From the IMG/VR virus record IMGVR_UViG_3300010149_000001, positions 1 through 64,000 of that record: a DNA stretch of 64,000 nt; one strand, 5' to 3'. A model generated the notes under the pieces. The model ran no database searches. It was given only the letters and a program-made list of their open reading frames with translations, and was not told where the DNA came from. Below, piece by piece: positions 1,193 to 58,171 of this stretch (within the stretch, counting starts at the first letter, position 1; every line of letters starts with the position of its first letter). The stretch comes from a virus. A program made the translations under genes and the position numbers.

Positions 1193-2316
1193 CCAACAAG
1201 GCCAATCCAATTCTGGTCAGACAGGCCAAGCGTTGGGCTATTGCTGAACGCCAAGACCGATTGCCAGACGAACTGTATGTTGCTCTGGCACAGGGTCGCT
1301 CATCAACCTATGAGCGCAAGGTCGTGAAGAACTTAGCCAAGCATTCCAGAATCATTGACATCGAGTCTGCGAGCATTCGCCCGTATGATGAGTTCAGCAA
1401 GGATTGGGTATATTCCAAGTCCGTGTTTGGACACACCAACAAATGCGAACTCTGTGGACACGCACCAATCAAAGAGAACTGCATTCTGACCAACCAAGAC
1501 AATGACAAAGAACTCATCATTGGGAATGTCTGTGTCCACCGCTACATCGAGATTAACGACCCAAAGACAGGGAAGCCAATGTCTGATGAAGAGAAGTCCA
1601 AGTTCCTCAAAAAGAACATGACAGAAGCGAAGTCTGAATACAAGCAACAGGAGTTCGCTCAGACCTATCCAGAGGCCATGAAACTGCTCAAGAAGTATGA
1701 ACGCATGATGAACTCACGAAAGCCCCTCAAGCGTCTGCATAAGACCGTAGTGAACCGTCTGGTGAAGTATGGCTATCTGGGAGGAAAAACACGCATGGCA
1801 TGGGACACCTTCATGGAGACCGCAGAGGCTGAACATGCCGCTTATCTGGACTACATCTCCAACAGAGAACTTGAGGCTAAGGCCAGAGCAGAACGCAACG
1901 CAGAAGCGAAAGTCGCCTTTGCTCAACAGATTGCTCAGAACAGGAATCTCTGGCAGAAAGAAGCAGATGAGTTCATCGCTGTGGGAACTGACCTTGAGGA
2001 ACAATTGAACTCTTGGGAGAAGGAGATGGTCGGCAGAGTCCAGACCAAAATACGCTTGACAGGAACAAAGTCTCTGCGTGGCGGTTATCTCAGATTCCAT
2101 GAAGAACTGATTGCCAGACACATGCTCGCCAATGGCGTTGAGATTCCAATGCCTGTGCTGGGAACTGAGGTCAAACTCTGGCTTCAATCAGCACCACTCA
2201 ACGATTGGGAGAGAGAGTTCTGCACATCAATTATGGGTCGCCTTGCATTAGGCCGTTCATTGTCAGAAGGACAAATCAAGGTCATTGACAAAATACGCAA
2301 GAAGGTGAGCAAGTGA
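1189..2316 (+). CDS. Hypothetical protein with Zn-binding motif
   Basis: CELCGH...C...GNVC; ATGA overlap at 1189. Confidence 0.7.
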   Translation: MTNKANPILVRQAKRWAIAERQDRLPDELYVALAQGRSSTYERKVVKNLAKHSRIIDIESASIRPYDEFSKDWVYSKSVFGHTNKCELCGHAPIKENCILTNQDNDKELIIGNVCVHRYIEINDPKTGKPMSDEEKSKFLKKNMTEAKSEYKQQEFAQTYPEAMKLLKKYERMMNSRKPLKRLHKTVVNRLVKYGYLGGKTRMAWDTFMETAEAEHAAYLDYISNRELEAKARAERNAEAKVAFAQQIAQNRNLWQKEADEFIAVGTDLEEQLNSWEKEMVGRVQTKIRLTGTKSLRGGYLRFHEELIARHMLANGVEIPMPVLGTEVKLWLQSAPLNDWEREFCTSIMGRLALGRSLSEGQIKVIDKIRKKVSK

Positions 2317-17475: not shown

Positions 17476-20153
17476 TTATCGCCATTGACTATGAGGAACA
17501 ACCAGAGTTCATCACCAAAATCCGATGCAAGGGTCTGGATGGTCGCTCTCATGTTCTCAGAGTGAAAGCACCACAGCCCAGATTCTGGACAGCCAAGAAT
17601 CCAAACGGGATGGTCATTCCAAAGCAAATCAAATCAATCAAACCGTCTGTCAAGACTTCTGTTCAAGGTGAACCACTCTGGGAGATTCGTGTTGACCTGC
17701 CATCTCAGATTCGTGAGGTTCGTGAGTTCTTCTATCCACATTATTGTTCAGATGTTTCATGGCCGAATCTGGTCAGATGGATTGCTGGTTGGGGTGCGGT
17801 TATCGAGGTCAATACGGACAAACTGAAATCCACAGCAGAAATCCTCCGCCCCGTTCACATCAAAAAATCAAATCACGATTTGTCAGAGTTCAAACTGAAC
17901 GCTCTGTATTATGACATTGAAACAGCAGATTCTCTGGACATGGAGGGAACTCCAGAACCGATTGTCTCCATAGCCATCTATGACGAGGCCACAGACACTC
18001 ACGAATGTGCAACAATACGCCACACCAGCGAGCGTCAAGTCAGACGATTCATGTCCAGCCAGAAGGCTCTGGAGTCCGTTGTTGAGCATAAGAATCCAAT
18101 CCCACCGCTGGTGGCTGAAAGAGTCCATGTGCATAACATGGAGGGCGAGGATGATATTGAGCGAGAGGCGGCACTTCTTCATTGGTTCAAGCGAATGCTG
18201 GACAAGTATGACCCAGATGTCATCGCTGGTCAAAACATTCTGGGCTATGACAACCCGTATGTCAAGAACCGATGTCGCAACCAACGCAGAGCGATGGAGA
18301 GGGAACACAGAGGTGCAGTTCCTGTCTGGGCAACCTATCCCAAACTGTTCACCAAACACAAAGGGCTGATGCCCTCGTTTGATACCAAGAAGGTCTATGC
18401 AGAGCAGGTTCAAGGTGCGGCGGCTACAACAGGGTCAGCCAGCCTTGCATGGATGGGAGAGTCCACTCTGGGCTATGGCAAAGTGCCACGCACATCAATC
18501 AAAGAGATGATGAAAAACGACCCGATGATGTTGGCTGTGTATAACATCTGGGACAATGTGGTGGCGGCTCGCTGTATGCAGAAACTTGACCTGCTGGCGT
18601 TTTATCAGATGAAGGTCGGATTCCATAACTCAACAATCCATGCGGCTCACAGCAACATGATGCTGGTCGAGGACATGATGGGACACTTGCTCTGGGACAG
18701 GGATTCTGTCATGCCATCGCTTGATGTTGCTCGCTCTCAATTGAAGTCTGGAGGAATCAGTCAAGGTGGATTCGTCATGGGCGCACCATCTGGCATCTGG
18801 AGGAACGCATTTGAATTGGATAACTCAATGGAATACCCATCTGTGATTATCACATGCAACGCTGACATCAGCACCAAAGTCAACCCAGAGGATTATCCAG
18901 ACGGTTATCCATTCCCTGTGGCAACAACACCGCTGGGAACGGTCTATCGCCAAGACATTGAGGGATTGATGCCCAATATCCTCAGAGGTCTGGCTGGCGA
19001 GCGTGAGCGTGTCAGAGGCGAGATGCGGGTTGCATTTGAATCTGGGAATGATGAACTTGGCAAGCGACTCGACCAACGACAGCGGGTCATGAAAGAGAAC
19101 ATGAACTCGTGGTATGGAGTTCTTGGTTCTGGTGCGACAGAAAAAACTGCGGGCAGACCGTTCAGAATGGTTGATGGAGATATTGGCTCTGATATAACAG
19201 ACATCGCCAGACGACACAACGATTGGAACAAGCACCTCATCAATCGCATCACACTTCTATTCAGCAAGGATGGCATCTATCCAGACCCAGAAGCATTGAG
19301 ACATCAAAACATTGATAGACTCCCATCTCATGGCGAAGGTGATGCGGAGGTCGTGCGACTCCGTTTTGAGACCATCTATCAAGACACAGATTCATGCAAG
19401 ACAGCCATCGTCAATCACGATGAGGCTGAGGCCAAAATCAGACCGTTCACTCCAGAGGACATCATGTCATGTGCAAACATCATGACCAAAATCCTCAACG
19501 ATTCCTATGATGAGTTTGTTCAGACAACGATTGGAGTTCCTAAGAATGAGTTTTTCAAAGTGAAGCCAGATGCCTATTATGCCAGATACTTTCAATGGGG
19601 AGTGAAGAAGCGATACGCCTATGTTGACTTCGATGGCAAACATGGTTATCGTGGTGTTGAGATGCGACGGTCATCCTCACCGCAGGTTGTCAAGTCATGT
19701 CAAGAGCGATTGTTCAATGCAATTTTGAATGGCGATTCCAGAACTGAACTCAACGGACTCATCAGAGATATTGAATCCGATATGTTGGATGAGACCTTGA
19801 CTTCTGCTGGAGACTTTGGACAACCGATGGGAATGAAGAAAGAAGGAACTCAAGCATACAAGGCGGCGATGTGGTCAAACAAAAATCTGGGAACTCAGTT
19901 TAATCTGGGAGACAAACCCGTCATGTATCTGTCATCTAAGACCAAGAACGGACTCCCAGCCAACAGGCTGGTGGCAATCGAATGGGGCGACTCTCCAGAG
20001 GACTACGGCATAGTCGTGGACAGAGCCAAAGCGATTGAGAAGTTCTTTGTTGACTCCAATTCATTCACTCAGATTCTGGGTGCTGTGGGAACATCATGGA
20101 AATCCGCCAGAGCAGGGATGAGTCAGTCCAGCATGAGCGAGTGGTTTCGATGA
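17454..20153 (+). CDS. polB: Family B DNA polymerase
   Basis: Exo DIET, N...YD, YN..D; pol DNSMEYPS, KENMNSWYG, YQDTDS, KKRY; C-terminal PIP box QSSMSEWF. Confidence 0.95.
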   Translation: MDKEPLLIIAIDYEEQPEFITKIRCKGLDGRSHVLRVKAPQPRFWTAKNPNGMVIPKQIKSIKPSVKTSVQGEPLWEIRVDLPSQIREVREFFYPHYCSDVSWPNLVRWIAGWGAVIEVNTDKLKSTAEILRPVHIKKSNHDLSEFKLNALYYDIETADSLDMEGTPEPIVSIAIYDEATDTHECATIRHTSERQVRRFMSSQKALESVVEHKNPIPPLVAERVHVHNMEGEDDIEREAALLHWFKRMLDKYDPDVIAGQNILGYDNPYVKNRCRNQRRAMEREHRGAVPVWATYPKLFTKHKGLMPSFDTKKVYAEQVQGAAATTGSASLAWMGESTLGYGKVPRTSIKEMMKNDPMMLAVYNIWDNVVAARCMQKLDLLAFYQMKVGFHNSTIHAAHSNMMLVEDMMGHLLWDRDSVMPSLDVARSQLKSGGISQGGFVMGAPSGIWRNAFELDNSMEYPSVIITCNADISTKVNPEDYPDGYPFPVATTPLGTVYRQDIEGLMPNILRGLAGERERVRGEMRVAFESGNDELGKRLDQRQRVMKENMNSWYGVLGSGATEKTAGRPFRMVDGDIGSDITDIARRHNDWNKHLINRITLLFSKDGIYPDPEALRHQNIDRLPSHGEGDAEVVRLRFETIYQDTDSCKTAIVNHDEAEAKIRPFTPEDIMSCANIMTKILNDSYDEFVQTTIGVPKNEFFKVKPDAYYARYFQWGVKKRYAYVDFDGKHGYRGVEMRRSSSPQVVKSCQERLFNAILNGDSRTELNGLIRDIESDMLDETLTSAGDFGQPMGMKKEGTQAYKAAMWSNKNLGTQFNLGDKPVMYLSSKTKNGLPANRLVAIEWGDSPEDYGIVVDRAKAIEKFFVDSNSFTQILGAVGTSWKSARAGMSQSSMSEWFR

Positions 20154-30346: not shown

Positions 30347-30442
30347 CCCAGCGCAGACAGCATTGAAGTATATCAATGTATATGTTCCATCAATGTTTAT
30401 GTTCCTTAATTGACTTAAACCTCAAAGCACCCCATAATCGGC

Positions 30443-33184
30443 ATGGGCAAGCGTGAGGATGACATCAAAGCATACATCAAAACCAATTTTCCAGAGTCTG
30501 CCAACAAGATTCGCCAGAGCATGAACTTTGCTCAATTGACCAGATTGGTGCAAGACTTGTCTGGCGGTATTCCAAAAGTTCTGGGCGATGTTCCAGATGA
30601 ATTGAAGGACACTCGGATATTCGGCTCAATACAACCAACAACGATAACGACGACAACCACGACTTCTTCTGATTCTGGTTCTGGTTCTGATTTGACAATC
30701 GGGACAGTTTCAACAACAGCGGCTGGTGGACAAGCGGCGGCATCAATCACAGACAACAAACTGAATCTGGTTCTGCCCAGAGGTTCAGCGGGTTCAACAG
30801 GTTCAGCAGGTGCTGATGGAACATCGGCCACAGTCGCTATTGGGACAACCTCGACGCTGGCGGCGGGTGCATCTGCGACGGTTGCCAACACAGGGTCAGC
30901 ATCAGCGTCTGTGCTTGACTTTGGCATTCCACAGGGCGCACAGGGCATTCAAGGGATTCAAGGAATACAGGGCATTCAAGGAACGGCAGGGACAGATGGA
31001 ACTGATGGAACTGATGGGACAGACGGCACAGATGGGACAGACGGTTCAGCGGCAACAATCGCTGTCGGCTCAGTCTCCACAGGGGCGGCAGGGACACCAG
31101 CGACGGTGGCAAATGTTGGAACATCATCAGCGGCAGTTCTGAACTTTGGAATCCCTCAAGGGGCGCAGGGGATTCAAGGCATTCAAGGGATTCAAGGCAA
31201 CGATGGTGCTGACGGCACAGACGGCACAGACGGGACTGATGGGACAAACGGGACTAATGGTCAAGGAGTGCCAACAGGCGGGTCAGCAGGGCAGGTTCTG
31301 AGCAAAATAGATGGGACAGACTACAACACTCAATGGTCAGCGGCAGGTGCTGGCTACACAGATGCAGAAGCGGTTGCGGCGGTTGAAGCAGAACCGACTC
31401 TGGTTCTGACAGGTGAGACATCACTTGGTCAAGTTCCAGAGGACTTGGTGGCAGTTCCAACGACATTCACCAGCGGGTCGAATCAAGTTTCAGTTCCAGA
31501 CGGTTCATTCTTCAATCTGGGCGATAAAATCTCCACGACTGTTGACCCGATTGTTGATTCTGGCGGGTCAGCGGCACAGCCAAACAAGGGCATTATCATA
31601 ACAGCAATCAGCGGCAACACTCTGACAATCAGCAAGACAATCGGGACATCAATAACCACCAACACAGTATTCAAGCGGCCAAGAGGTGTGCCATCAATTC
31701 TGCCAGAAGCACCGTATCTGTATTCAAATCCAACGAACTCAGCAGAGGTGCAATTGAGTGCTGACAGGGCTGGTGGGAATGATGCAATTCTGAGAATAAA
31801 CACGGAGTCTGGTTATCTGAGACTTGGCGCACAGAACGGTTCATTCTGCCACTTCTATACAGACAGGGCATACTTCTATTTCAACAGGCCAATACAAATG
31901 GATGGTGGGGCGTTTTACGCATACAACGATGACCTTGAAATCAAGACTGATGACTCTGGTGCTGACCAGCCCACGAGGATATTCATTGACGCACAGGTTG
32001 ACCCTTGCAGGGTCGGCATTGGGAATGGATTCACAGCATCATCGTTGCCAACAAACACACTCCATGTCAAGACAAGTCAATACCAAGCGGGTGGGGGTTC
32101 TTCTGGAACTTATGACAACATTGGAGATGGTGCTTATGCGGCCAGATTCCAGACAAACAATGGGAATGTTGGAATCTCAAAGTATGGTGGAATCCATCTG
32201 GACAATGACAACACAGCCCCTCTTGATGGCGCAGATTGGTCAACCCAGAGATGGCAGATTGGTCAGCGAGATGGAGAACAATTGGACATCTCGTTTGGAA
32301 CTCCACTCGACACGAATGTTGCGGCTTCTGACACCAAACTGAGACTCAAAACAGACGGCAAGGTTGGGATTCTGAAAGGGGCGACTGACCCAGCCCAAGC
32401 ACTTGATGTGAATGGGACAATCCGTCAGTCAAATGCCACCAATGCCATCATCCATGCAAATGCGAATGGCGACTTGGGCGCATTGACTGTTGGGTCTGGA
32501 TTGTCATTATCTGGTTCAACCCTCACAGCCACAGGTGGTGGAGGTGGCGGTGGCTCTGGAGACTTCATTGGCTTGACAGACACTCCAGCATCATATTCTG
32601 GAATGGCTGGCAGAGTTCCAGCCGTGAACTTCACGGAGGATGCTTTGCAGTTTGTTGACATTTATGGTGCGCTGGGAATGTTCATCGGTGATGCCAACGG
32701 ACAGGTCGGCAACAGCAACAAAACAAAACTGATATTCGATGCCTCTTTTTCTGTTGCAGATGTATCATCCAACACAGCGGTTGTCAGCGTTGCTGGAGGC
32801 GGTGGCGGAGGCGGTGGAGGCGGTCAATTGAAACCCCCAACATCTGGGACAATCATAGGTGGCGGGACAATTCCAGCAGGGATGAATCGTGCCATTCTGA
32901 TTGACGGTGGCGACTTTGAAAATCCAATCACTTTGACTCCACCAACCACGACAACCCACGACTTGACAATCACCATGTATTCAAATGACAGGGCGATTAT
33001 AGACGCTGGGAATGATATGTTCTCCTATATGGATGAAGAGACAGGAGAATCAGAGACTCAAGCAATTCAGATATTCAGCGGAAAGTCAGTTCAATGCACA
33101 TACATGACTGACCCATTGGGTGATGGTGTAAATCGCTGGTTCATCATTGGCAACATTAACAGGGCTTTCAGATTCTTGCTCTGA
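30443..33184 (+). CDS. Collagen-repeat tail fibre / spike protein
   Basis: GIQ/GTD triplets, repeated ATVxxG...LxFGIPQG units, GGSAGQVLSK..DYNTQW, VGI...P...LDVNG fibre motifs. Confidence 0.85.
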   Translation: MGKREDDIKAYIKTNFPESANKIRQSMNFAQLTRLVQDLSGGIPKVLGDVPDELKDTRIFGSIQPTTITTTTTTSSDSGSGSDLTIGTVSTTAAGGQAAASITDNKLNLVLPRGSAGSTGSAGADGTSATVAIGTTSTLAAGASATVANTGSASASVLDFGIPQGAQGIQGIQGIQGIQGTAGTDGTDGTDGTDGTDGTDGSAATIAVGSVSTGAAGTPATVANVGTSSAAVLNFGIPQGAQGIQGIQGIQGNDGADGTDGTDGTDGTNGTNGQGVPTGGSAGQVLSKIDGTDYNTQWSAAGAGYTDAEAVAAVEAEPTLVLTGETSLGQVPEDLVAVPTTFTSGSNQVSVPDGSFFNLGDKISTTVDPIVDSGGSAAQPNKGIIITAISGNTLTISKTIGTSITTNTVFKRPRGVPSILPEAPYLYSNPTNSAEVQLSADRAGGNDAILRINTESGYLRLGAQNGSFCHFYTDRAYFYFNRPIQMDGGAFYAYNDDLEIKTDDSGADQPTRIFIDAQVDPCRVGIGNGFTASSLPTNTLHVKTSQYQAGGGSSGTYDNIGDGAYAARFQTNNGNVGISKYGGIHLDNDNTAPLDGADWSTQRWQIGQRDGEQLDISFGTPLDTNVAASDTKLRLKTDGKVGILKGATDPAQALDVNGTIRQSNATNAIIHANANGDLGALTVGSGLSLSGSTLTATGGGGGGGSGDFIGLTDTPASYSGMAGRVPAVNFTEDALQFVDIYGALGMFIGDANGQVGNSNKTKLIFDASFSVADVSSNTAVVSVAGGGGGGGGGGQLKPPTSGTIIGGGTIPAGMNRAILIDGGDFENPITLTPPTTTTHDLTITMYSNDRAIIDAGNDMFSYMDEETGESETQAIQIFSGKSVQCTYMTDPLGDGVNRWFIIGNINRAFRFLL
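30685..31275 (+). repeat. Tandem collagen-like coding repeats with a duplicated block
   Basis: 9-bp units (gg.attcaa; gg.ac.ga.) and two near-identical blocks. Confidence 0.85.
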
Positions 33185-42736: not shown

Positions 42737-43000
42737 TCAGAACTCGTGTGAGAAGTCATCAGATGCGCCAACAGATGCGGCCATTGAGTATGTTCCAAAG
42801 GGCATGAAGTATTCCTCTGTGGTGTGTCCACAGGTGAATGACTTAACGCTTCTGCGAACTTCAACACCGTCAATAACTGTCCAGATGCTGGAGGCAGTTC
42901 TGCGTGTGATAGTGAAATACCAATGGCATTCTGAATCACAGATGGAGGTCGCTTTGTATGTGCATCCTTCGTTGAAGGTGAATGTTCCGTGTCGGCTCAT
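42737..43000 (-). CDS. Hypothetical protein (antisense cassette)
   Basis: Own class-E promoter at 43001-43059; leaderless ATGAGCC. Confidence 0.75.
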   Translation of the reverse strand: MSRHGTFTFNEGCTYKATSICDSECHWYFTITRRTASSIWTVIDGVEVRRSVKSFTCGHTTEEYFMPFGTYSMAASVGASDDFSHEF

Positions 43001-43102
43001 ATCCTTCCGTGTGCATCCACCCTTATCAATGTATCTCAATCTCAATGCTTTTGTTCCCAATTCCAACACCGATTTAACCCGCCGACATATTGAAGTCAAT
43101 AC

Positions 43103-45270: not shown

Positions 45271-45714
45271 TTAAGCCCACTCTTGCATCATGACCTTAAC
45301 GAATCGGTTGAATCGCTTGCGGCCTGTCTCGTTTTTCTTGTCTGCTGGTTTCCAATTGAATCCCAGACTGAACTGAGCAGATGTGCCACGAGTGCCATCA
45401 GAACTGACCCATTGGCCTTCTGAGATTCGGACAAACTTTGGGAACTGTGCAACAAACGCTTTGGTGTCAGCATCGTTATCAAAGTGAAAACTCAAGTTCA
45501 TGCTGAAACTTGGGGGAACTTGCCAATTGTCCCAATCTCCTTCTTCTGCTTGGACAAAGGTTTCTGCTTCTAATTCAGCGGCGTTGAATCTTGCTTCTGC
45601 ATCATCAAGGCATTCTGCGATAGTCTTGAACTGTGCGGCTTCGTGTTTGATTCCACAGCCTCCATAATAAGTTCCTTTCGATAGTGTGTTCCAATGCTCT
45701 CCTGTTGTCTGCAT
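45271..45714 (-). CDS. Hypothetical protein (antisense cassette)
   Basis: Class-E-like promoter at 45715-45770. Confidence 0.7.
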   Translation of the reverse strand: MQTTGEHWNTLSKGTYYGGCGIKHEAAQFKTIAECLDDAEARFNAAELEAETFVQAEEGDWDNWQVPPSFSMNLSFHFDNDADTKAFVAQFPKFVRISEGQWVSSDGTRGTSAQFSLGFNWKPADKKNETGRKRFNRFVKVMMQEWA

Positions 45715-45819
45715 GTGTTGAACCAATGGGTCTCCCCTTATCAATGCTTCGATATTCCAATACTTTGATGTCTGAATAGGAATGTTCTTATACTACTACA
45801 CCCACCCATCAAATACCCC

Positions 45820-45932
45820 GCCAGACGGGTGATACCCCAAGACAAGCCCCCAGAAGTGCGATTGACGAATCCTGTCTCCGCTTCTGGACACGGCCTCTGG
45901 AATACGAGGGGAATGTCTGGCACTCATATTCC
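45820..45932 (+). ncRNA. Candidate structured ncRNA A
   Basis: TATA-like at 45787; terminal helix gccagac/gtctggc; internal ccagaag/cttctgg; 3' tail shared with ncRNA B. Confidence 0.45.
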
Positions 45933-45971: not shown

Positions 45972-48900
45972 ATGGCAGAGCGTAAGCGCACCTTCGCAGA
46001 CCGATTGCTGGGGCGCAACAGGTCAGCATCCCCAGCCGATGTGCAACGCTTAACCAAACTCATCAACGACCAACACCAACCAGAGATGGATTGGGATGGC
46101 AAGGCTCTGGCTTCAATGTCCAAAATCGGACAGGCCACCTCCGCATCGAAGGGCAAAACAGGTTCTGGCGGAACTCAAACTCAAGTATCATACAATCTGC
46201 TCAGAGACATCTCGCTCAAGTCTGAGGTTGTCAACGCTATCCTCAGACGATGTGTTGACGACATTCTGGGCAACGGATATTCATTCATTCTGGCAGAAGG
46301 CAAAGAGAGTGGAGACACGGCTCAATTGCAGAAACTCAAGGACTTCTTCAAGAATCCAAATCCAGATGACAACGGCAACGAGTGGATGGAATCACTCATC
46401 TATGACCTGTGCCTGTTTGGAGATGCGTATCTGGAACTCGATGGTTCAGATGACACCAACACAGATGGCAAAGGACAGTCGTGGACATACGGCGGCGAAC
46501 TCGCAAGTGTCTGGCCTATCCCAGCAGAGCAGATGACTTTGCTCGCTGGCAACCGCAGACCAGAGCCACCAGAGATGGCATACATGCAGAAACTCAACGG
46601 CGAGACCAGAAAGTTCAGCAAGGACAAGGTGATTCATATCTCCAAGTTCAAGCATGGTCGTGCATACGGGACTTCACCTCTGATTCCTCTGCTCAATGTG
46701 ATTGCTGGACACCTCAACCTGTCGAACTATCTGAATGAACTCTATACAGGAACTCTGCCCAAGACCATTCTCAATGTGGGCGACATCAGCAACGCTGAGA
46801 TGAAAGCCATGCTCGCACTTCTGGAACAGCAATTGACAGGTGGCAAATCGCCATTCGGTCTGGTCGCTGTGAACGGTGGAACAGGATTCAATATGCACAG
46901 GATTCTGGACTCGACCAGAGAAGGCGCACAGTTAGACCTGCTATACTACTATCGTGAAGAGATATGCGCTGTCTTTGGCATCCCACCGATGAAACTTGGC
47001 TGGGTTCAGACAGGCAAAATGTCCAACCCAGAATCTCAATTAGAGGCTTGGTATGATGTCATTGAATCATATCATAAGCGTGTTGAGGCAGTTCTCAACA
47101 ACCGACTTCTGCCACTCTTTGAAATCACCGATTGGGAGTTCAAGTTCACCACCATCCGACCCAGCAGGGACAAGGAGATTGCAGAGACTCGCAAGGCAGA
47201 AGCCAACGCTATCTCCAACCTCCGTCAAGAAGGTGTCATATCAATCAACGAGGCCAGAAGTATGCTTGGCTTTGAGCGTCTGTCTGAGCCAGAGGCAGAT
47301 GACCCGATGTTCCTATCACCCAAACTCGCCATCAACAAGGGCAAAGTGGAATCTGGTGTTGAGACTGAAATGTCAATTCCATCTCTTGCAGATTTGTTCC
47401 CATCTCCAGAATCACCATCTGATGAAGGCAAAGGTGCTGGTGAGCATCCAGATTGGCTCGATGAAATCCCGTTGGTTGAACTATCTGATGATATTCGCAC
47501 CGATATGCTTCAAACCAGAATGAAGAACTCAGACGAGTTTGAAGAAATTATCGCAGAATCAGAGGCAGTTCTGAAAGCAGTTTTTGAAGAAGGACAGGAA
47601 TCATTCGCATCTGCTGTCATCAAGGAACTCAACGAGATGTTCTCTGCTGGAGATGAAGCGGTTGAGATTCCAGATATTGACCTTGATATTCCTGTCAAGT
47701 CCTATGTCAGAAAGGCAACAATCAGTCTGGATGATATTGAATTGGCCGTTGGTGCTGTTGATGCAAACATCGGTCTGGCGATTGAATCTCAAGTGGCATC
47801 TGCTGAACTCACATTGGTCGGTGCGTATGAAGCATCACTCGCAACCACACTTGCACCCACAGGAATCTCTGCGGCTCTGATGTCTGACGATATTGCCGCC
47901 ATAGCCTTCTGGCGAAGTCGCTGGGTTCTGCCAGCCCTCAGAAGGACTCTTGGCTCTCACAGAGCGAACATCATTGACACCTTTGAGCGAATGGTGTCTG
48001 ATGGCGAATCGTGGCGATGGGCGAGAGCAGAGATGCGTTCTCTGATTGACCCAAGTGGCAAGCGTTATCCAGCATACTACTATGACCGAATCGCACGAAC
48101 TGAAACCAGACGAGTCGTTGAAAACTCTCACATCTCTGGAATGAGAAGGGCTGGATTCCAACATGTTCAGAGGCTGGTCGTTGTTGACGACACGACTGAC
48201 AGAGACTTATGCGCCCCGTATGAGGATGCAGTTTATCCGATTGCAGAATCCAAATCTGTGATTCCAGCACACCCGAATTGCCGATGCACATTTGTTGCGT
48301 ATGAGGGAACTCCAGAAACCGTTGTTCCATCTGACCAGATTCTGACACCCGTTATTGAGTTCAATATGAATGTAGTGAACAAGGCTGTGAGTTCTGCGGT
48401 GCGAGATGGGCTGGCAACCAAAGCCAAAGAGCATAATGAAAAAGTCAAAAATGCCAAGACCAAAAAGACCAGCACCAGAACTCTGATTGCTGTGTTTGAA
48501 AGAGGCGTTGGTGCATACAATACAAATCCATCATCGGTCAGACCAAGCGTCAGTTCACCAGAACAATGGGCGTATGCTCGTGTCAATTCATTCCTCTATT
48601 GTCTAAGAAACGGCAGGTATCGAAGCGGCAAGCACGATACTGATTTACTGCCCAAAGGACACCCACAGTCAACCAAGTCAGTCTCTAAGCGAGCATTGAC
48701 CAGAAAGGATTTGACTCCACCAGCAGGGGTCAAGAAAGCATGTGCAACAGGAATCAAACTCTTTGAGGATGGATATGGAGGCTCTGGACTTGAGGCCACG
48801 ACCATCCGTGAGGCCAGAAGCATTGTCAGAGGAACTCCAATCACAGTCGCCAAAGCCAGAAAAATGATTCGCTGGTGGGGTCGCAACGAGAGATTCCTCA

Positions 48901-49007
48901 CCTTCGACAAGGACACACCAGCATGGACAGCCGCCATGCTCTGGGGAGGTCGTGCTGGACTATCGTGGTCAAACAAACTCCAGAGAGCGTTGGAGGCAGA
49001 CGAATGA
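45972..49007 (+). CDS. Portal protein fused to MuF/SPP1-gp7-like minor head domain and extra C-terminal domains
   Basis: GDAYLE, YGTSPL, FGIPP.KLG, SINEAR; RIARTETRR...PAHPNCRC. Confidence 0.9.
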   Translation: MAERKRTFADRLLGRNRSASPADVQRLTKLINDQHQPEMDWDGKALASMSKIGQATSASKGKTGSGGTQTQVSYNLLRDISLKSEVVNAILRRCVDDILGNGYSFILAEGKESGDTAQLQKLKDFFKNPNPDDNGNEWMESLIYDLCLFGDAYLELDGSDDTNTDGKGQSWTYGGELASVWPIPAEQMTLLAGNRRPEPPEMAYMQKLNGETRKFSKDKVIHISKFKHGRAYGTSPLIPLLNVIAGHLNLSNYLNELYTGTLPKTILNVGDISNAEMKAMLALLEQQLTGGKSPFGLVAVNGGTGFNMHRILDSTREGAQLDLLYYYREEICAVFGIPPMKLGWVQTGKMSNPESQLEAWYDVIESYHKRVEAVLNNRLLPLFEITDWEFKFTTIRPSRDKEIAETRKAEANAISNLRQEGVISINEARSMLGFERLSEPEADDPMFLSPKLAINKGKVESGVETEMSIPSLADLFPSPESPSDEGKGAGEHPDWLDEIPLVELSDDIRTDMLQTRMKNSDEFEEIIAESEAVLKAVFEEGQESFASAVIKELNEMFSAGDEAVEIPDIDLDIPVKSYVRKATISLDDIELAVGAVDANIGLAIESQVASAELTLVGAYEASLATTLAPTGISAALMSDDIAAIAFWRSRWVLPALRRTLGSHRANIIDTFERMVSDGESWRWARAEMRSLIDPSGKRYPAYYYDRIARTETRRVVENSHISGMRRAGFQHVQRLVVVDDTTDRDLCAPYEDAVYPIAESKSVIPAHPNCRCTFVAYEGTPETVVPSDQILTPVIEFNMNVVNKAVSSAVRDGLATKAKEHNEKVKNAKTKKTSTRTLIAVFERGVGAYNTNPSSVRPSVSSPEQWAYARVNSFLYCLRNGRYRSGKHDTDLLPKGHPQSTKSVSKRALTRKDLTPPAGVKKACATGIKLFEDGYGGSGLEATTIREARSIVRGTPITVAKARKMIRWWGRNERFLTFDKDTPAWTAAMLWGGRAGLSWSNKLQRALEADE

Positions 49008-49414
49008 GCATGACCAACAACAACGCTCAGACTCGTGCCAATCTCATCAAGGCCAGAGCCGCATTCACACTCATGAAGAATGAAATGGTGCATACAACGA
49101 CACCAAAGAACTTGGACACCATCGCTCAGAGAATCCTCACAGATGCCAAGAGGAATGCACCCGTCAGAACAGGTGCGCTCAGAGCGTCTGGCCGTGTGAA
49201 GCGAGTTAATCAGTTCAGACGCAGAGTTCAATTCGGCGGTGCTGGAACAGGTGTTGACTATGCACAGGCTGTTGAGTTTGGAACAATCAACACCAGACCC
49301 AGACCATACCTTGAACCAGCGGTGATTAAGAATATCAAAAAGACTCCAGCAATTGTCAGACCATCCATTAGAAAGTGGTTGACTAAACTTGTTCTGCTGG
49401 GTTCATCGGATTGA
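49004..49414 (+). CDS. HK97 gp10-like neck/tail-completion protein
   Basis: APVRTGALRAS, YAQAVEFGT, PRPYLEPA. Confidence 0.88.
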   Translation: MSMTNNNAQTRANLIKARAAFTLMKNEMVHTTTPKNLDTIAQRILTDAKRNAPVRTGALRASGRVKRVNQFRRRVQFGGAGTGVDYAQAVEFGTINTRPRPYLEPAVIKNIKKTPAIVRPSIRKWLTKLVLLGSSD

Positions 49415-49419
49415 TGAAT

Positions 49420-49605
49420 GGAATATGAGTGCCGACTATGGGATTGACCCTCGCCACCGACCTCTCGATGGTGAGTCATTAACTGTCTGGGGGCAAGAAC
49501 CCCATAGTCGGACAGGTTGCACAGTTTTCTCCTTCTGCTCGATTGCCCGACCCGCCCTTTTGGGGCGAAGGGTTCTTCCAGAGTATGCTCGACTGTGCGG
49601 CGGGC
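49420..49605 (-). ncRNA. Candidate multi-pseudoknot ncRNA B
   Basis: Full class-E promoter at 49606-49665 with no ATG at +1; five predicted helices. Confidence 0.6.
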
Positions 49606-49708
49606 AAACCAGACGAGTCGCTACCCATATATCAATGTATCGTCAATATCAATGCTTTTTGCCCTCATATCACCAATGTTAAAACCCGCCAAAGTCAACC
49701 AGATGGAT

Positions 49709-51241
49709 ATGCGAGCCGTATTGGTTGATGGAGATGACTACACTCAACGCTCTGGTGAGAGCAAAGAAGTCCAAATCAAACTTGAGGCTCAGATGCCATT
49801 CATCTTGGACAAATCATTCCAGAAGGATGCAGAGTCAGACTATGAATATGAGATTGGCGACGATGATGTTGTCATTCGTGGACCCGTCTATGTTGGGAAC
49901 TCAGATATGCTTGACCGACATAACGAACTCGTTGCGCCAGATGCGCTCATCAAATCATGGGGAGACTATCAGAAGAATCCCGTCATCCTATACAACCACT
50001 CTAAGACATACGGTGTCATCGGCAGAATGCTCGATGTCGAGATGGGAACTTGGGATGGCATCAAAGGTGAAGTTCCAATCGGCAGAGCCGTGATTGACGG
50101 TGGCGAAAAGGATATTGTCAGAAAAATACGCAAGGGATTCCTCAGAGCATTCAGTATTGGTTTCATCGCTAAGGCGGCAATCAAGGAATGCAAAGACGAT
50201 GAGACATGCTACATGACCTTCACAGAGGTTGATTGGCTTGAGACCAGCGTGGTTGATGTGCCAGCATCGCCCAACGCACTATTCAATGTTCAGAAGCATG
50301 TGCTTGGATATGAGGACATGGGTGAATCAATCGCTATCCTCTTTGAGAAGATGCCAATGGAATCACCATCAGAAGAACCCCCTGCTGGTGGAGATATGGA
50401 ATCGCCTGTTGAAGAATCGGCGGATTCTGGCTGTGGATGCAAATCACATATCGAGTCCGATACTCCAGAAACTGTTAGCGGCTTCGATTCTGAAATTGAC
50501 TCGTTGAAGGCTCAAATTGCTGAGATGAAAGAACTACTGCTCGCAAGTCTGACACCTTCTGAGTCCCAAAAGTCCGAATCTGAAAATACCGATTCACTTA
50601 ATACCCCCATTGACAAAGGCATTGGACAACAGGTGAACCAAATGACAGACGATACACTCATTGACACTCCAGAAGAAGAGGTCATCGTTGCCTCAGAGGA
50701 ACTTGAAGTTCCCACAGAAGAACTATCCATTAAGACAGAGGCTGTTGAAGAAGCAGAAGAAGTCGTTGAAGAAGCCGCAGAAGAAGTGGCAGAAGAAGAA
50801 CTCCCAGAAGAAGTCGTTGAAGAAGTCGCAGAAGCAACAGAAGAAGAATCTGCTGGCGAACCAACAACCACAGAAGTCATGATTGAAGTCGTTAAGGCAT
50901 TAGCAAATGTCGAAGCACGACTTTCAACCATTGAAGGACACATTAAATCAAGTGAGGACATTGACACACTCAAGTCTGAACTTGCATCCATGAAGGCTGA
51001 GAAGGAAGCCGCAGAAGCAGAAGCAAGCATTGAGGCAGAAGTCGCCAAGCGTGTTGCAGACCTTGTTGGGACAACCCCAGAGGTCAAGACTGTTGAAGCA
51101 TCTCCAAAGAGCCTCGCATCCACAGGAACAGAAGTTAAGAAAGCAAACCACACCCGCCACGACCCAACACCAACGGTCAGCAACGGTATGAATGGTCTGG
51201 CTGGATGGCTTGAAGTTCAAATCGCCAAGCGAGGTGCTTGA
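49709..51241 (+). CDS. HK97-type prohead protease fused to acidic scaffold
   Basis: LYNH..., FSIGF, ETSVVDVPA; E-rich C-terminal half. Confidence 0.92.
   Translation: MRAVLVDGDDYTQRSGESKEVQIKLEAQMPFILDKSFQKDAESDYEYEIGDDDVVIRGPVYVGNSDMLDRHNELVAPDALIKSWGDYQKNPVILYNHSKTYGVIGRMLDVEMGTWDGIKGEVPIGRAVIDGGEKDIVRKIRKGFLRAFSIGFIAKAAIKECKDDETCYMTFTEVDWLETSVVDVPASPNALFNVQKHVLGYEDMGESIAILFEKMPMESPSEEPPAGGDMESPVEESADSGCGCKSHIESDTPETVSGFDSEIDSLKAQIAEMKELLLASLTPSESQKSESENTDSLNTPIDKGIGQQVNQMTDDTLIDTPEEEVIVASEELEVPTEELSIKTEAVEEAEEVVEEAAEEVAEEELPEEVVEEVAEATEEESAGEPTTTEVMIEVVKALANVEARLSTIEGHIKSSEDIDTLKSELASMKAEKEAAEAEASIEAEVAKRVADLVGTTPEVKTVEASPKSLASTGTEVKKANHTRHDPTPTVSNGMNGLAGWLEVQIAKRGA
50642..51241 (+). CDS. 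Nested in-frame scaffold protein (199 aa)
   Basis: Internal class-L promoter at 50596 and AGGTGA SD at 50631 before an in-frame ATG. Confidence 0.65.
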   Translation: MTDDTLIDTPEEEVIVASEELEVPTEELSIKTEAVEEAEEVVEEAAEEVAEEELPEEVVEEVAEATEEESAGEPTTTEVMIEVVKALANVEARLSTIEGHIKSSEDIDTLKSELASMKAEKEAAEAEASIEAEVAKRVADLVGTTPEVKTVEASPKSLASTGTEVKKANHTRHDPTPTVSNGMNGLAGWLEVQIAKRGA

Positions 51242-51294: not shown

Positions 51295-52371
51295 ATGAGT
51301 GAAGAAATCCAATTTAACGACATGGTTCAACGAGTGAAAGACGCATTAGCAGGGCAAACCGATGGTGGCTCTCAAATGTTCCCAACAGAGACTTCTGATG
51401 AAATTATTCAGATTGTCTATGAGAGGAACTTCATGCGTTCTTTGTTCTCTGCTTTGCCAATGGCGACCAGAACTATCAAAGTGCCAAAACTTTCAACATC
51501 TGTCGGATTCCACCGTCAGACTCTTGCTTCAACACAGGCTGGAACTGCGGCTGATGAATCCACTCAAGGAACAGCAGAGATTGACTTGACCTTGACCACC
51601 ATGATTGCCAACATTCCAATCGGAAACTATCTGATTGCATACGGTGTCGAAGGATTGCTGACTGTGCTTCGTGATGACATCGCTTCTCGCTTGGCCTTCA
51701 ATGAAGAATCACTCTTCATCAACGGAGACAAGCAAGCCACTCTTGCTGACAACATCAACGGTGCGTATGCAAACCCAGCAAACTTGTCTGGAATCAACGC
51801 AACCGCAGGTGCATCTCAGAACGACTACTTGCTATCTCAGAACGGACTTCGCAAACTTGCTGGAACATCTGTCTCTGTCTCTGGAACTTTTGCTCTGAGC
51901 CACCTTCGCTCGGCAATCAACCAATTGGGAGTTCACGCTGACAACCGTGATGAACTATCATTGATTGTTCCTCGCAACCTTGAAGTTCAATTGATGGGCT
52001 TCACAGAACTTCAAACTGTTGACAAATACGGTGCTGGTGCAACCATCCTCTCTGGAGAACTTGGTCGTATCTATGGAATCCGTGTCTTTGCCACAGGAAC
52101 AATCCCAACCAACCTAAATTGGACAGGACTTTACGAACTTGGCAAGACTGTCAACGGCTCTGCGGCAATCGCTGACAAGACCGTTGCTCTTTTGGTCAAC
52201 AACCGTTCACCTCTGATTGGCAACCCAACAGATGCTGACCGCAGATTCAACATGGGCTTCCTTGATGAGCCAACCAAAGACCGTTTCGTCTTAATCCCTC
52301 GTCAAGACATCGCTTTCAATGTGCGATACACAGAGGCTGTTTGTCTGCTTCACGGTATCGCAACCGTCTGA
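51295..52371 (+). CDS. Major capsid protein (HK97 fold)
   Basis: P.E.S.EII, EE.LFING, G.I.GI.V; follows the protease; AGGTGA SD. Confidence 0.9.
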   Translation: MSEEIQFNDMVQRVKDALAGQTDGGSQMFPTETSDEIIQIVYERNFMRSLFSALPMATRTIKVPKLSTSVGFHRQTLASTQAGTAADESTQGTAEIDLTLTTMIANIPIGNYLIAYGVEGLLTVLRDDIASRLAFNEESLFINGDKQATLADNINGAYANPANLSGINATAGASQNDYLLSQNGLRKLAGTSVSVSGTFALSHLRSAINQLGVHADNRDELSLIVPRNLEVQLMGFTELQTVDKYGAGATILSGELGRIYGIRVFATGTIPTNLNWTGLYELGKTVNGSAAIADKTVALLVNNRSPLIGNPTDADRRFNMGFLDEPTKDRFVLIPRQDIAFNVRYTEAVCLLHGIATV

Positions 52372-56650: not shown

Positions 56651-56977
56651 TCAGTTAATTTTGTTGCCATCCATGTCAAAGACATCACGGCCACCTTCGC
56701 CACCACGCATTCGGATAACGGTGAATCGGTCATCGCCAGAGATTGAAACCCAAGCGAATGTGCGAGGTTCTGTGATTAAGTATTCTGAACCTGTGCATCC
56801 TGTGATAACTTCTTTGACTTGAGTTTCAACGACTGTCATCTCCATGCTGATTGCTTTGGATTCCTCGATGCAGATAAACATCTCAGCGGTGCTTGCATCC
56901 GTAGCGGTGTTGTGAAAATACACTTCATGGATTTTGTCAGTCTCAGTCTCTTTGACTTGGTATGGGTATTGGCTCAT
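56651..56977 (-). CDS. Hypothetical protein (antisense cassette, gene 1)
   Basis: Class-E promoter at 56978-57036. Confidence 0.75.
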   Translation of the reverse strand: MSQYPYQVKETETDKIHEVYFHNTATDASTAEMFICIEESKAISMEMTVVETQVKEVITGCTGSEYLITEPRTFAWVSISGDDRFTVIRMRGGEGGRDVFDMDGNKIN

Positions 56978-57065
56978 ATCCCTGCGTGTGCATACCACTA
57001 TATCAATGCGTCGGCCATATCAATGGTTTTGTTCTTAAAATGAGCAAGTTTTGGTTCGCCAGAAA

Positions 57066-57627: not shown

Positions 57628-58017
57628 TCACTCAAACTTGCACATGAATGAACTGCCACAGTCGGTTTGATTCCAATCCCAGCGGTATGCTGACATGATT
57701 ATTGCCATAGCCTCAAAGACTCTTTCACGGTCAGACTGAGTTCCTTCTCCACTCCACATGACGAATCCTTCATATTTCCAAGCATCTTCTGTGAACCAAT
57801 CTTCTCCACGATTTGCTTGACGGATTTTGAAAGTGCAAGGTGAATCACCGTTGGTGAATATAATTTCACAGTCCTCACGGATAGCAATCTGTTGTTCTGT
57901 TATGTCCATCTTGACCCATTCACCAGATGTGAATGTGTTTTCTGGTCGGTTTGGAATAGTGAAAACTCCAATCGCTTCTGTGGTTGTCATTGTCTGTTGC
58001 ATGTTGGTTCTGCTCAT
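57628..58017 (-). CDS. Hypothetical protein (antisense cassette)
   Basis: Class-E promoter at 58018-58074. Confidence 0.75.
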   Translation of the reverse strand: MSRTNMQQTMTTTEAIGVFTIPNRPENTFTSGEWVKMDITEQQIAIREDCEIIFTNGDSPCTFKIRQANRGEDWFTEDAWKYEGFVMWSGEGTQSDRERVFEAMAIIMSAYRWDWNQTDCGSSFMCKFE

Positions 58018-58171
58018 ACCCCTGCGTGGGAGTTCCCCCTTATAATATCTTCTCAATCTCAATGGTTTTGTTCCTAATTCCCACCTTATTGAAGTCAATA
58101 CACACCATATTGGTCAGAATAATTGAGATTCCTCCGAAGCCTTGAAGTCCTATCGTGGTTCACACCCCAAC

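Follow-up and report, generated by a model that had tools for sequence, protein, structure and literature searches.

A promoter-headed candidate structured RNA with an exchangeable domain in the head-gene module of a putative archaeal tailed virus

The window analysed here is the first 64 kb of a record of 81,676 bp with direct terminal repeats, from an uncultivated marine virus. Nearly all long frames of the window lie on its plus strand, among them a head module with portal, HK97-gp10-like, prohead protease and HK97-type capsid genes (Table 1). The virus also encodes PolB, PrimPol, an RFC-like clamp loader, an XPF/ERCC4-HhH nuclease and a CobS/CobT-like pair. Among the PolB matches listed, every one that covers at least 85% of the protein belongs to a haloarchaeal tailed virus; a search with the capsid protein returned two weak matches only, and a nucleotide search of the phage collection gave no match. 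Genes heading a unit have a TATA-like box that ends about 22 nt before the ATG and no ribosome-binding site, and genes inside operons have GGTGA-type sites. Transcripts beginning at the start codon are an archaeal pattern. Gene content and promoter layout together suggest an archaeal tailed virus.

The HK97-gp10-like gene stops at 49414, and the gap considered below therefore extends from 49415 to the start of the protease gene. Since the protease alignment of twelve relatives begins at the methionine of 49709, a start at 49703 or 49709 is likelier than the ATG of 49676. A preliminary description of the window had placed in this gap a structured RNA of about 185 nt, read from the minus strand and headed by its own promoter; the element does occupy the whole space between the two genes. 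The TATA-like box in front of the protease gene has counterparts some 21 nt ahead of the ATG in the portal and other late genes. It belongs to a second TATA-like class (TTAAAMCC or ATAAACC type), present on the plus strand at 30415, 43070, 45944, 49679, 52440, 54430, 55130, 57216 and 59878, about 21 nt ahead of ATGs that have no ribosome-binding site. Many relatives have a comparable box before the protease gene. Such boxes are probably late promoters whose transcripts begin at the ATG.

Table 1. Features of the locus, in window coordinates; helices of minus-strand features are written 5' to 3' on that strand
Feature	Position	Strand	Remarks
RNA A	45817-45932 (stretch from 45796)	+	gene-free, structured; flanked by a TATA-like box and by the box of the portal gene
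Portal fused to Mu-F-like domain and DUF5824 region, 1011 aa	45972-49007	+	
HK97-gp10-like head-tail gene	48875-49414	+	PF04883, phrog_5
Pyrimidine-rich 12-nt tail after P1	49420-49431	-	sequence conserved behind every M1 copy
Domain 2 (module M1)	49432-49511	-	P1 49511-498/49445-432; P2 49494-491/49450-447; P3 hairpin 49474-465/49460-451
Internal loop of M1, 16 nt	49490-49475	-	invariant except two positions
Domain 1, long irregular hairpin	49519-49598	-	helices 49598-92/49525-19, 49583-80/49532-29, 49575-74/49542-41, 49572-63/49557-46
Inferred transcription start	49605	-	slot of the A of ATG in sister promoters; fixed 22-23 nt spacing
Early-type promoter	49628-49666	-	CATTGAKAT element 49654-49646 and TATA-like box CATTGATATA 49637-49628
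TATA-like 'late' box of the protease gene	49679-49690	+	back to back with the minus-strand promoter
Prohead protease (S78), Glu-rich C-terminal half	49703-51241; longest ATG frame from 49676	+	
HK97-type capsid gene	51295-52371	+	

The promoter motif of the gap, for which 'early' is a label only, lies at 49663-49628 on the minus strand, as first described. Its 27-nt core occurs once in the window, where 100 shuffles gave an expectation of 0. A strict version of the pattern, a double CATTGA motif whose second half-site ends in a TATA-like box, has nine sites in the 81,676-bp genome and none in each of 30 shuffles. By inspection, six of the nine have an ATG 22-23 nt past the end of the TATA-like box, and one has it at 11 nt. 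The two strict sites without an ATG are the one studied here, for which the absence of an ATG at the 22-nt position was confirmed, and one at 70865(+), heading a large gene-free stretch beyond the window. The spacing of the motif halves is by inspection too short for sigma-70, and a sigma-70-style spacing pattern gave 0 matches. Because the TATA-box and leaderless-ATG layout is the archaeal pattern, we infer an archaeal host and an RNA start near G49605; transcription, the RNA ends and early timing of a ~185-nt RNA are all predictions from the letters of the genome. The RNA-read check (one RNA run, 4% of sampled words) yielded a single contig of 157 nt; it maps to 50001-50157, within the protease gene, and no sequence falls on the gap.

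Relatives were collected by protease-based searches, which gave 4, then 5, then 69 loci, numbered here with the prefix L. The inverted orientation of the promoter is kept in three lineages, represented by the window, L001 and L013. The promoter itself is 38/39 identical in L001 and 34/39 in L013, as against 78/109 and 80/109 (72-73%) for the neighbouring RNA. This higher conservation of the promoter, together with G-U and U-G pairs that favour the minus strand, bears out that strand as the one from which the RNA would be read.

Six-frame translations of the gap in the window, L001 and L013 contain no shared frame with a start codon. The overlapping plus-strand frame, singled out beforehand as the test that could overturn an RNA, is not conserved: it has an in-frame stop in L013. 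One may nevertheless consider a small protein gene on either strand, for example from the plus-strand ATG, 49425-49682. This frame starts 11 nt past the stop of the gp10-like gene, its own stop overlaps the ATG of the longest protease frame, and in L001 the protease frame is open through the whole gap. Against it, besides the stop in L013, the lineages share no start codon, changes in the stems are compensatory, and the substitutions have no codon periodicity (8/11/9, 10/10/9 and 9/7/6 over the three codon phases of the alignable 109 nt). We regard this hypothesis as largely refuted and very improbable. By inspection, the frame that runs backwards through domain 2 (module M1, below) has 85 codons in the window, and 17 codons with a different start in L020 and L024. 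The missing conserved frame and the compensatory changes in both domains point, as had been proposed, to a non-coding structured RNA with its own promoter.

This RNA resembles no known family in our searches. The recommended comparison with Rfam 15, which includes known ribozymes and the phage pRNA, produced 0 matches at the gathering score in the window; at E values up to 5 it produced three weak matches, none of them inside the gap. ARAGORN predicted 0 tRNA or tmRNA genes, in keeping with the earlier remark that the element does not look like a tRNA. The folding energy of the region is weakly unusual, with z = -2.2 to -2.4 for the minus strand and -2.6 for the plus strand.

The RNA had been described as multiply pseudoknotted, on the basis of four perfect helices and a hairpin. 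A script recovered exactly these four helices (49607-01/49549-43, 49598-92/49525-19, 49577-70/49502-495 and 49511-01/49442-32). Four helices of at least 7 bp compare with a mean of 0.98 in 500 dinucleotide shuffles, of which 1.8% reached four, and the 11-bp helix 49511-01/49442-32 was reached in 0/500. The hairpin at 49553-67 is present, and the first three helices listed do cross one another. In the relatives, helix 49598-92/49525-19, the hairpin and the 11-bp stem are kept, and the two crossing helices are not. Both of the latter use bases of nested pairs that are supported by covariation, including the compensatory pair 49570/49548, from which each takes a base, and both fail or cannot exist in relatives. 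Helix 49607-01/49549-43, which begins two bases ahead of the inferred start, has 3/7 positions unpaired and one more gapped in L001; overall it is 80% paired with 0 compensatory changes. Helix 49577-70/49502-495 competes with P1 of M1 and is impossible in L001 and L013, because these do not contain M1. The minimum-energy fold of 49606-49418 consists of two nested domains. Given that the crossing helices fail the comparison, that the nested pairs covary and that the minimum-energy fold is itself nested, the multiple pseudoknot is not supported; the relatives support a nested two-domain fold instead.

Domain 1 was folded by RNAalifold on an unfitted MAFFT alignment of three lineages; the structure derives from that alignment itself and hence leans towards it. 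With this reservation, 95.6% of cells are paired and 6/23 pairs are changed on both sides, a number that 0/500 shuffles reach, compared with 21-52% paired and no pairs changed on both sides in slid controls. Helix 49583-80/49532-29 has compensatory changes in 3/4 pairs, one of which differs between L001 and L013. Several U-G pairs of the domain are valid on the minus strand only. The fold takes in helix 49598-92/49525-19 and, within 49572-63/49557-46, the hairpin of the preliminary description, and has two further inner helices; in the small hairpin of L001 no compensatory flips were found in the MAFFT register.

Among 77 sources, domain 1 was found in four (the window, L001, L007 and L013, that is, three lineages) and nowhere else. 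L001 and L007, near-identical to each other, have proteases 94% identical to that of the window, and that of L013 is 65% identical; all three loci keep the inverted promoter, which stands back to back with the protease gene's TATA-like box. Past about 49519, the window, L001 and L013 have unrelated sequences, yet each of them folds there into a domain closed by a long stem. The distal domains other than that of the window, and the leaders, have no relatives among the loci. We note that the distal domain of L001 contains, at 1519-1545(+), a tandem direct repeat of 12-13 nt in its 13-bp closing stem.

In the window the distal domain is a module, M1, of roughly 100 nt with its tail. A covariance model of M1 detects four copies, in three lineages, among 76 sources totalling 723 kb (L003, L005, L006 and L012 being excluded as duplicates of included regions). 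Searches with nhmmer and the M1 model found no further copy in the 76 sources, in three bacterial pattern matches, in the rest of the genome or in L197, a chance match to the promoter string in a coding region; nor is there one among the loci listed for a 14-base pattern that at least 78 loci share. The copies, compared over the distal 95 nt of the gap, are 84% (L014), 82% (L020) and 72% (L024) identical to that of the window, and the proteases beside them 46-66% identical to the window's (46-49% for L020 and L024). As only 4/76 sources contain it, M1 must be dispensable for most relatives.

The copy in the window has the best model score, 118.5 bits, and forms 27/27 pairs. Compensatory changes affect 5/27 pairs of M1 (1/500 shuffles reach this number), and 90.2% of cells are paired as against 33-50% in slid controls, on an alignment that was fitted to its model and therefore leans towards structure. 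When each lineage is folded singly, the same shape is obtained every time. The closing stem varies freely while staying paired, and in L024 the tip of the hairpin is replaced and its base kept. On the sense strand 27 pairs form compared with 24 on the antisense strand in the window, and 26 compared with 21 in L014. Several finer readings of the module were rejected: a bulge-helix-bulge splice site or a sarcin-ricin motif, for which the geometry is unfit; a pseudoknot between tail and loop, which is inconsistent across lineages; and pairing of the tail with gene starts, which amounts to about 5 nt at most, given transcripts starting at the ATG.

The settings of the copies differ. That of L014 lies 4.9 kb from the protease gene, directly upstream of the portal gene, and those of L020 and L024 lie directly upstream of protease genes; all three are on the late-gene strand, the opposite orientation to that of the window. 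By inspection, the RNA of L014, given the position of its TATA-like box, would begin with the first base of P1. The M1 copies of L020 and L024 come after some 170 nt of other structured sequence, headed by an early-type promoter that overlaps the upstream gene at its end. Between the tail and the TATA-like box that serves the portal or protease gene there are 9-12 nt in L014, L020, L024 and RNA A (below). In other relatives the same slot holds a small promoter-headed reading frame. Separately, three loci (L014 5700-6025, L015 80-366, L020 320-640) have an early-type promoter on the late-gene strand followed by an ORF-less leader of 240-290 nt before the protease gene; the middles of these leaders differ between close relatives, and most end in a tail-like motif.

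The element might also be a by-product of recombination: a cassette, inverted or transplanted, that now does nothing and whose helices go back to a functional copy at another place. In favour of this, viruses with 94% identical proteases have no homology in the distal half of the gap, and M1 is sporadic (4/76 sources). Conservation of the promoter and of domain 1 with compensatory changes in three lineages speaks the other way, as does the intact M1 of the window, with its full set of pairs and top score. We therefore consider a by-product quite improbable.

The window contains a second candidate of the same kind, RNA A, upstream of the portal gene. It has the position of the M1 copy of L014 and flanks in common with it, and its fold has z = -2.3. 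Its 3' end (45919-45932(+)) is identical over 14 nt to the tail plus the last two P1 bases of the window's M1, a match that alone has E ~0.05. In a scored pairwise alignment with the window's M1, RNA A reaches z = 4.8 (0/300 shuffles attain it), and with that of L014 z = 2.6; the M1 covariance model does not detect it (E = 6.8). RNA A is taken here as a putative diverged paralogue of M1. Beyond the window, at 70829-71700(+), a promoter of the same type heads more than 800 nt without a credible frame and with many G+C-rich stems. No tRNA was found in this stretch, and Rfam gave one weak, unrelated match in the rest of the genome. The stretch resembles the RNA of the gap in its promoter type, its lack of genes, its G+C-rich character, its many stems and its lack of an Rfam match; it differs in being about four times longer, and the M1 model finds nothing there.

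What has to be explained is thus a promoter motif family, a region without coding potential, covarying helices, their strand and modular exchange. We tentatively favour, at somewhat less than even confidence, a self-contained cassette in which a virus-type promoter heads a non-coding RNA, most likely a stand-alone small RNA bound by protein. An RNA of about 185 nt, probably starting near 49605(-), would fold into two nested domains. Domain 1 accompanies the promoter in every lineage that has the inverted arrangement, and domain 2 is exchangeable; in this virus it is M1, with its long closing stem, near-invariant loop, hairpin and tail. The loop of M1 may be the protein-binding platform of the RNA, which would act in trans. 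The promoter-plus-RNA unit occurs in both orientations relative to the adjoining head genes, and M1 in three slots, from which it would follow that the RNA is not tied as a leader to any given gene; a unit that works either way round, with a module that works in three slots, favours an RNA acting by itself. Against this reading, each domain is documented by three independent lineages only, both alignments lean towards structure, M1 is rare, and the gap contains no terminator.

The bases of the M1 loop may hint at the kind of protein. Archaeal kink-turn RNAs bound by L7Ae, such as box C/D sRNAs, consist of a canonical stem, a 3-nt bulge and tandem G-A pairs. As we read it, the loop fits this signature, with a 4-bp G-C stem, a 3-nt bulge and two facing GA dinucleotides; the bases concerned are invariant in M1, so that the reading has no covariation behind it, and the signature is also readable in RNA A. 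A difference from the canonical motif is an insertion of 13 nt in M1 where the regular non-canonical stem would be. A loose kink-turn pattern has two sites in the genome and 0-4 in shuffles, that is, no enrichment. Box C/D sRNAs proper carry their C box close to the 5' end and their D box close to the 3' end, joined by a terminal stem; a box C/D sRNA was rejected here, since by inspection neither box is found at the ends and there is no guide region.

The main rival to a stand-alone RNA, and one compatible with it, is antisense timing. The promoter at the end of the portal-gp10 operon would fire back into it, and the 185 nt would be no more than the stable 5' segment of an antisense RNA which continues further and damps or times head-gene expression by pairing or by polymerase collision. 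The geometry fits, read-through being antisense to the 3' end of the gp10-like gene. A consensus scan of the gap found neither terminator-like nor sigma-70-type sites, and the first minus-strand T5 run, by inspection, lies about 75 nt inside the gp10-like gene; with no terminator in the gap, the RNA may run on as antisense. The persistence of the promoter orientation in three lineages agrees with this too. In the haloarchaeal tailed virus HFTV1, the part of the report drawn on here describes 23 antisense start sites, 12 of them inside capsid and packaging operons or at their ends, which its authors link to late-gene timing (PMC12542753). The likeness is one between tailed viruses of archaea with starts pointing backwards at the ends of capsid and packaging operons. 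The antisense RNAs of HFTV1 come from RNA-seq, and conserved folds go unmentioned in that part of the report, whereas the RNA of the window is known from sequence and has a conserved intergenic fold. This fold argues against plain antisense action: selection bears on helices within the intergenic part, and antisense action does not need helices. M1 moreover lies on the sense strand in L014, L020 and L024. We hold antisense timing for a possible explanation, of distinctly lower probability than a stand-alone RNA.

Alternatively, M1 and its tail may form a boundary element, a stop signal or 3'-end stabiliser that shields the next unit from transcription started at early-type promoters; in the tail, transcripts would stop or be processed. 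No structured domain follows M1 in any copy, and the tail always comes next; within 6-12 nt of the tail there is a TATA-like box (L014, L020, RNA A) or the end of a gene (the window). A stop signal would, however, leave unexplained why the 16-nt loop is near-invariant, with two positions that vary, while the closing stem varies freely, and domain 1 would be left unexplained as well. The tail has no T run, and the consensus scan gave nothing there or elsewhere in the gap. A boundary element therefore appears rather unlikely. M1 and its tail could also be a portable RNA switch operated by a protein, by which early-promoter transcripts would either stop at the border of the cassette or run into the head genes. 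This too we think unlikely, by a shade more so. If it were true, run-on would yield sense transcripts of portal or protease genes in the relatives and for RNA A, and antisense transcripts of the gp10-like and portal genes here, and M1 would be an archaeal-virus counterpart of the lambda nut or HK022 put timing RNAs.

The stand-alone RNA that we prefer may be compared with the prohead RNA (pRNA) of phi29, a two-domain RNA of ~170-190 nt from a tailed virus, with its own early promoter and no reading frame, tied to head genes. The predicted RNA of the window is similar in size, in having two domains and its own promoter, in lacking an ORF and in standing beside head genes; it differs in having no Rfam match, and the virus has an ordinary large terminase.

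As a genomic unit, the element recalls the PeSL (promoter-early stem-loop) cassettes of T4-type phages, described in the consulted part of the source as small units tagged by strong early promoters, which occupy variable intergenic slots and are breakpoints of modular shuffling between close relatives, with sigma-70 promoters and a simple terminator hairpin bracketing protein genes (PMC2839356). Here also a repeated promoter motif, predicted from sequence, heads the unit, and the slot is a breakpoint of module exchange, the distal domain being swapped between the window, L001 and L013 and M1 occurring in three slots. In contrast with the PeSLs, to the extent that this part of the source describes them, the promoter is of the TATA type, there is neither a sigma-70 site nor a terminator, and the cargo is a covarying RNA of 185 nt. 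Since relatives carry a small promoter-headed frame at the same place, the slot behaves like a PeSL cassette with an RNA as cargo. The promoter-tagged 'extra gene' slots of these viruses can thus carry folded RNAs in place of proteins.

Almost nothing, to our knowledge, is known of gene control in the abundant uncultivated tailed viruses of marine archaea. A module that moves between slots and viruses with an almost invariant core is the pattern expected of a specific binding site, which is what we predict M1 to be. The analysis leaves two covariance models and exact coordinates with which to seek the RNA in metatranscriptomes. A literature search, whose reach stopped short of the alignments of the IMG/VR RNA catalogue, found no published description of this RNA; that catalogue, which in the part of its description drawn on here comprises ~8,500 candidate structured RNAs (PMC10690425), might contain M1.

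A few other features of the window deserve mention. Within the plus-strand virion module, four small genes lie on the minus strand (42737-43067, 45271-45766, 56651-57037 and 57628-58084); each has an early-type promoter, and the sequence they have in common extends through the start codon. A protein of 913 aa (30443-33184(+)) contains two blocks of 9-nt repeats, of the collagen-like Gly-X-Y type, at 30922-31278. Finally, an early-type promoter motif is located inside the PolB gene, at 19252-19318(+), and about 30 nt upstream of it stands a 12-mer identical to the tail of the M1 copy of L014.
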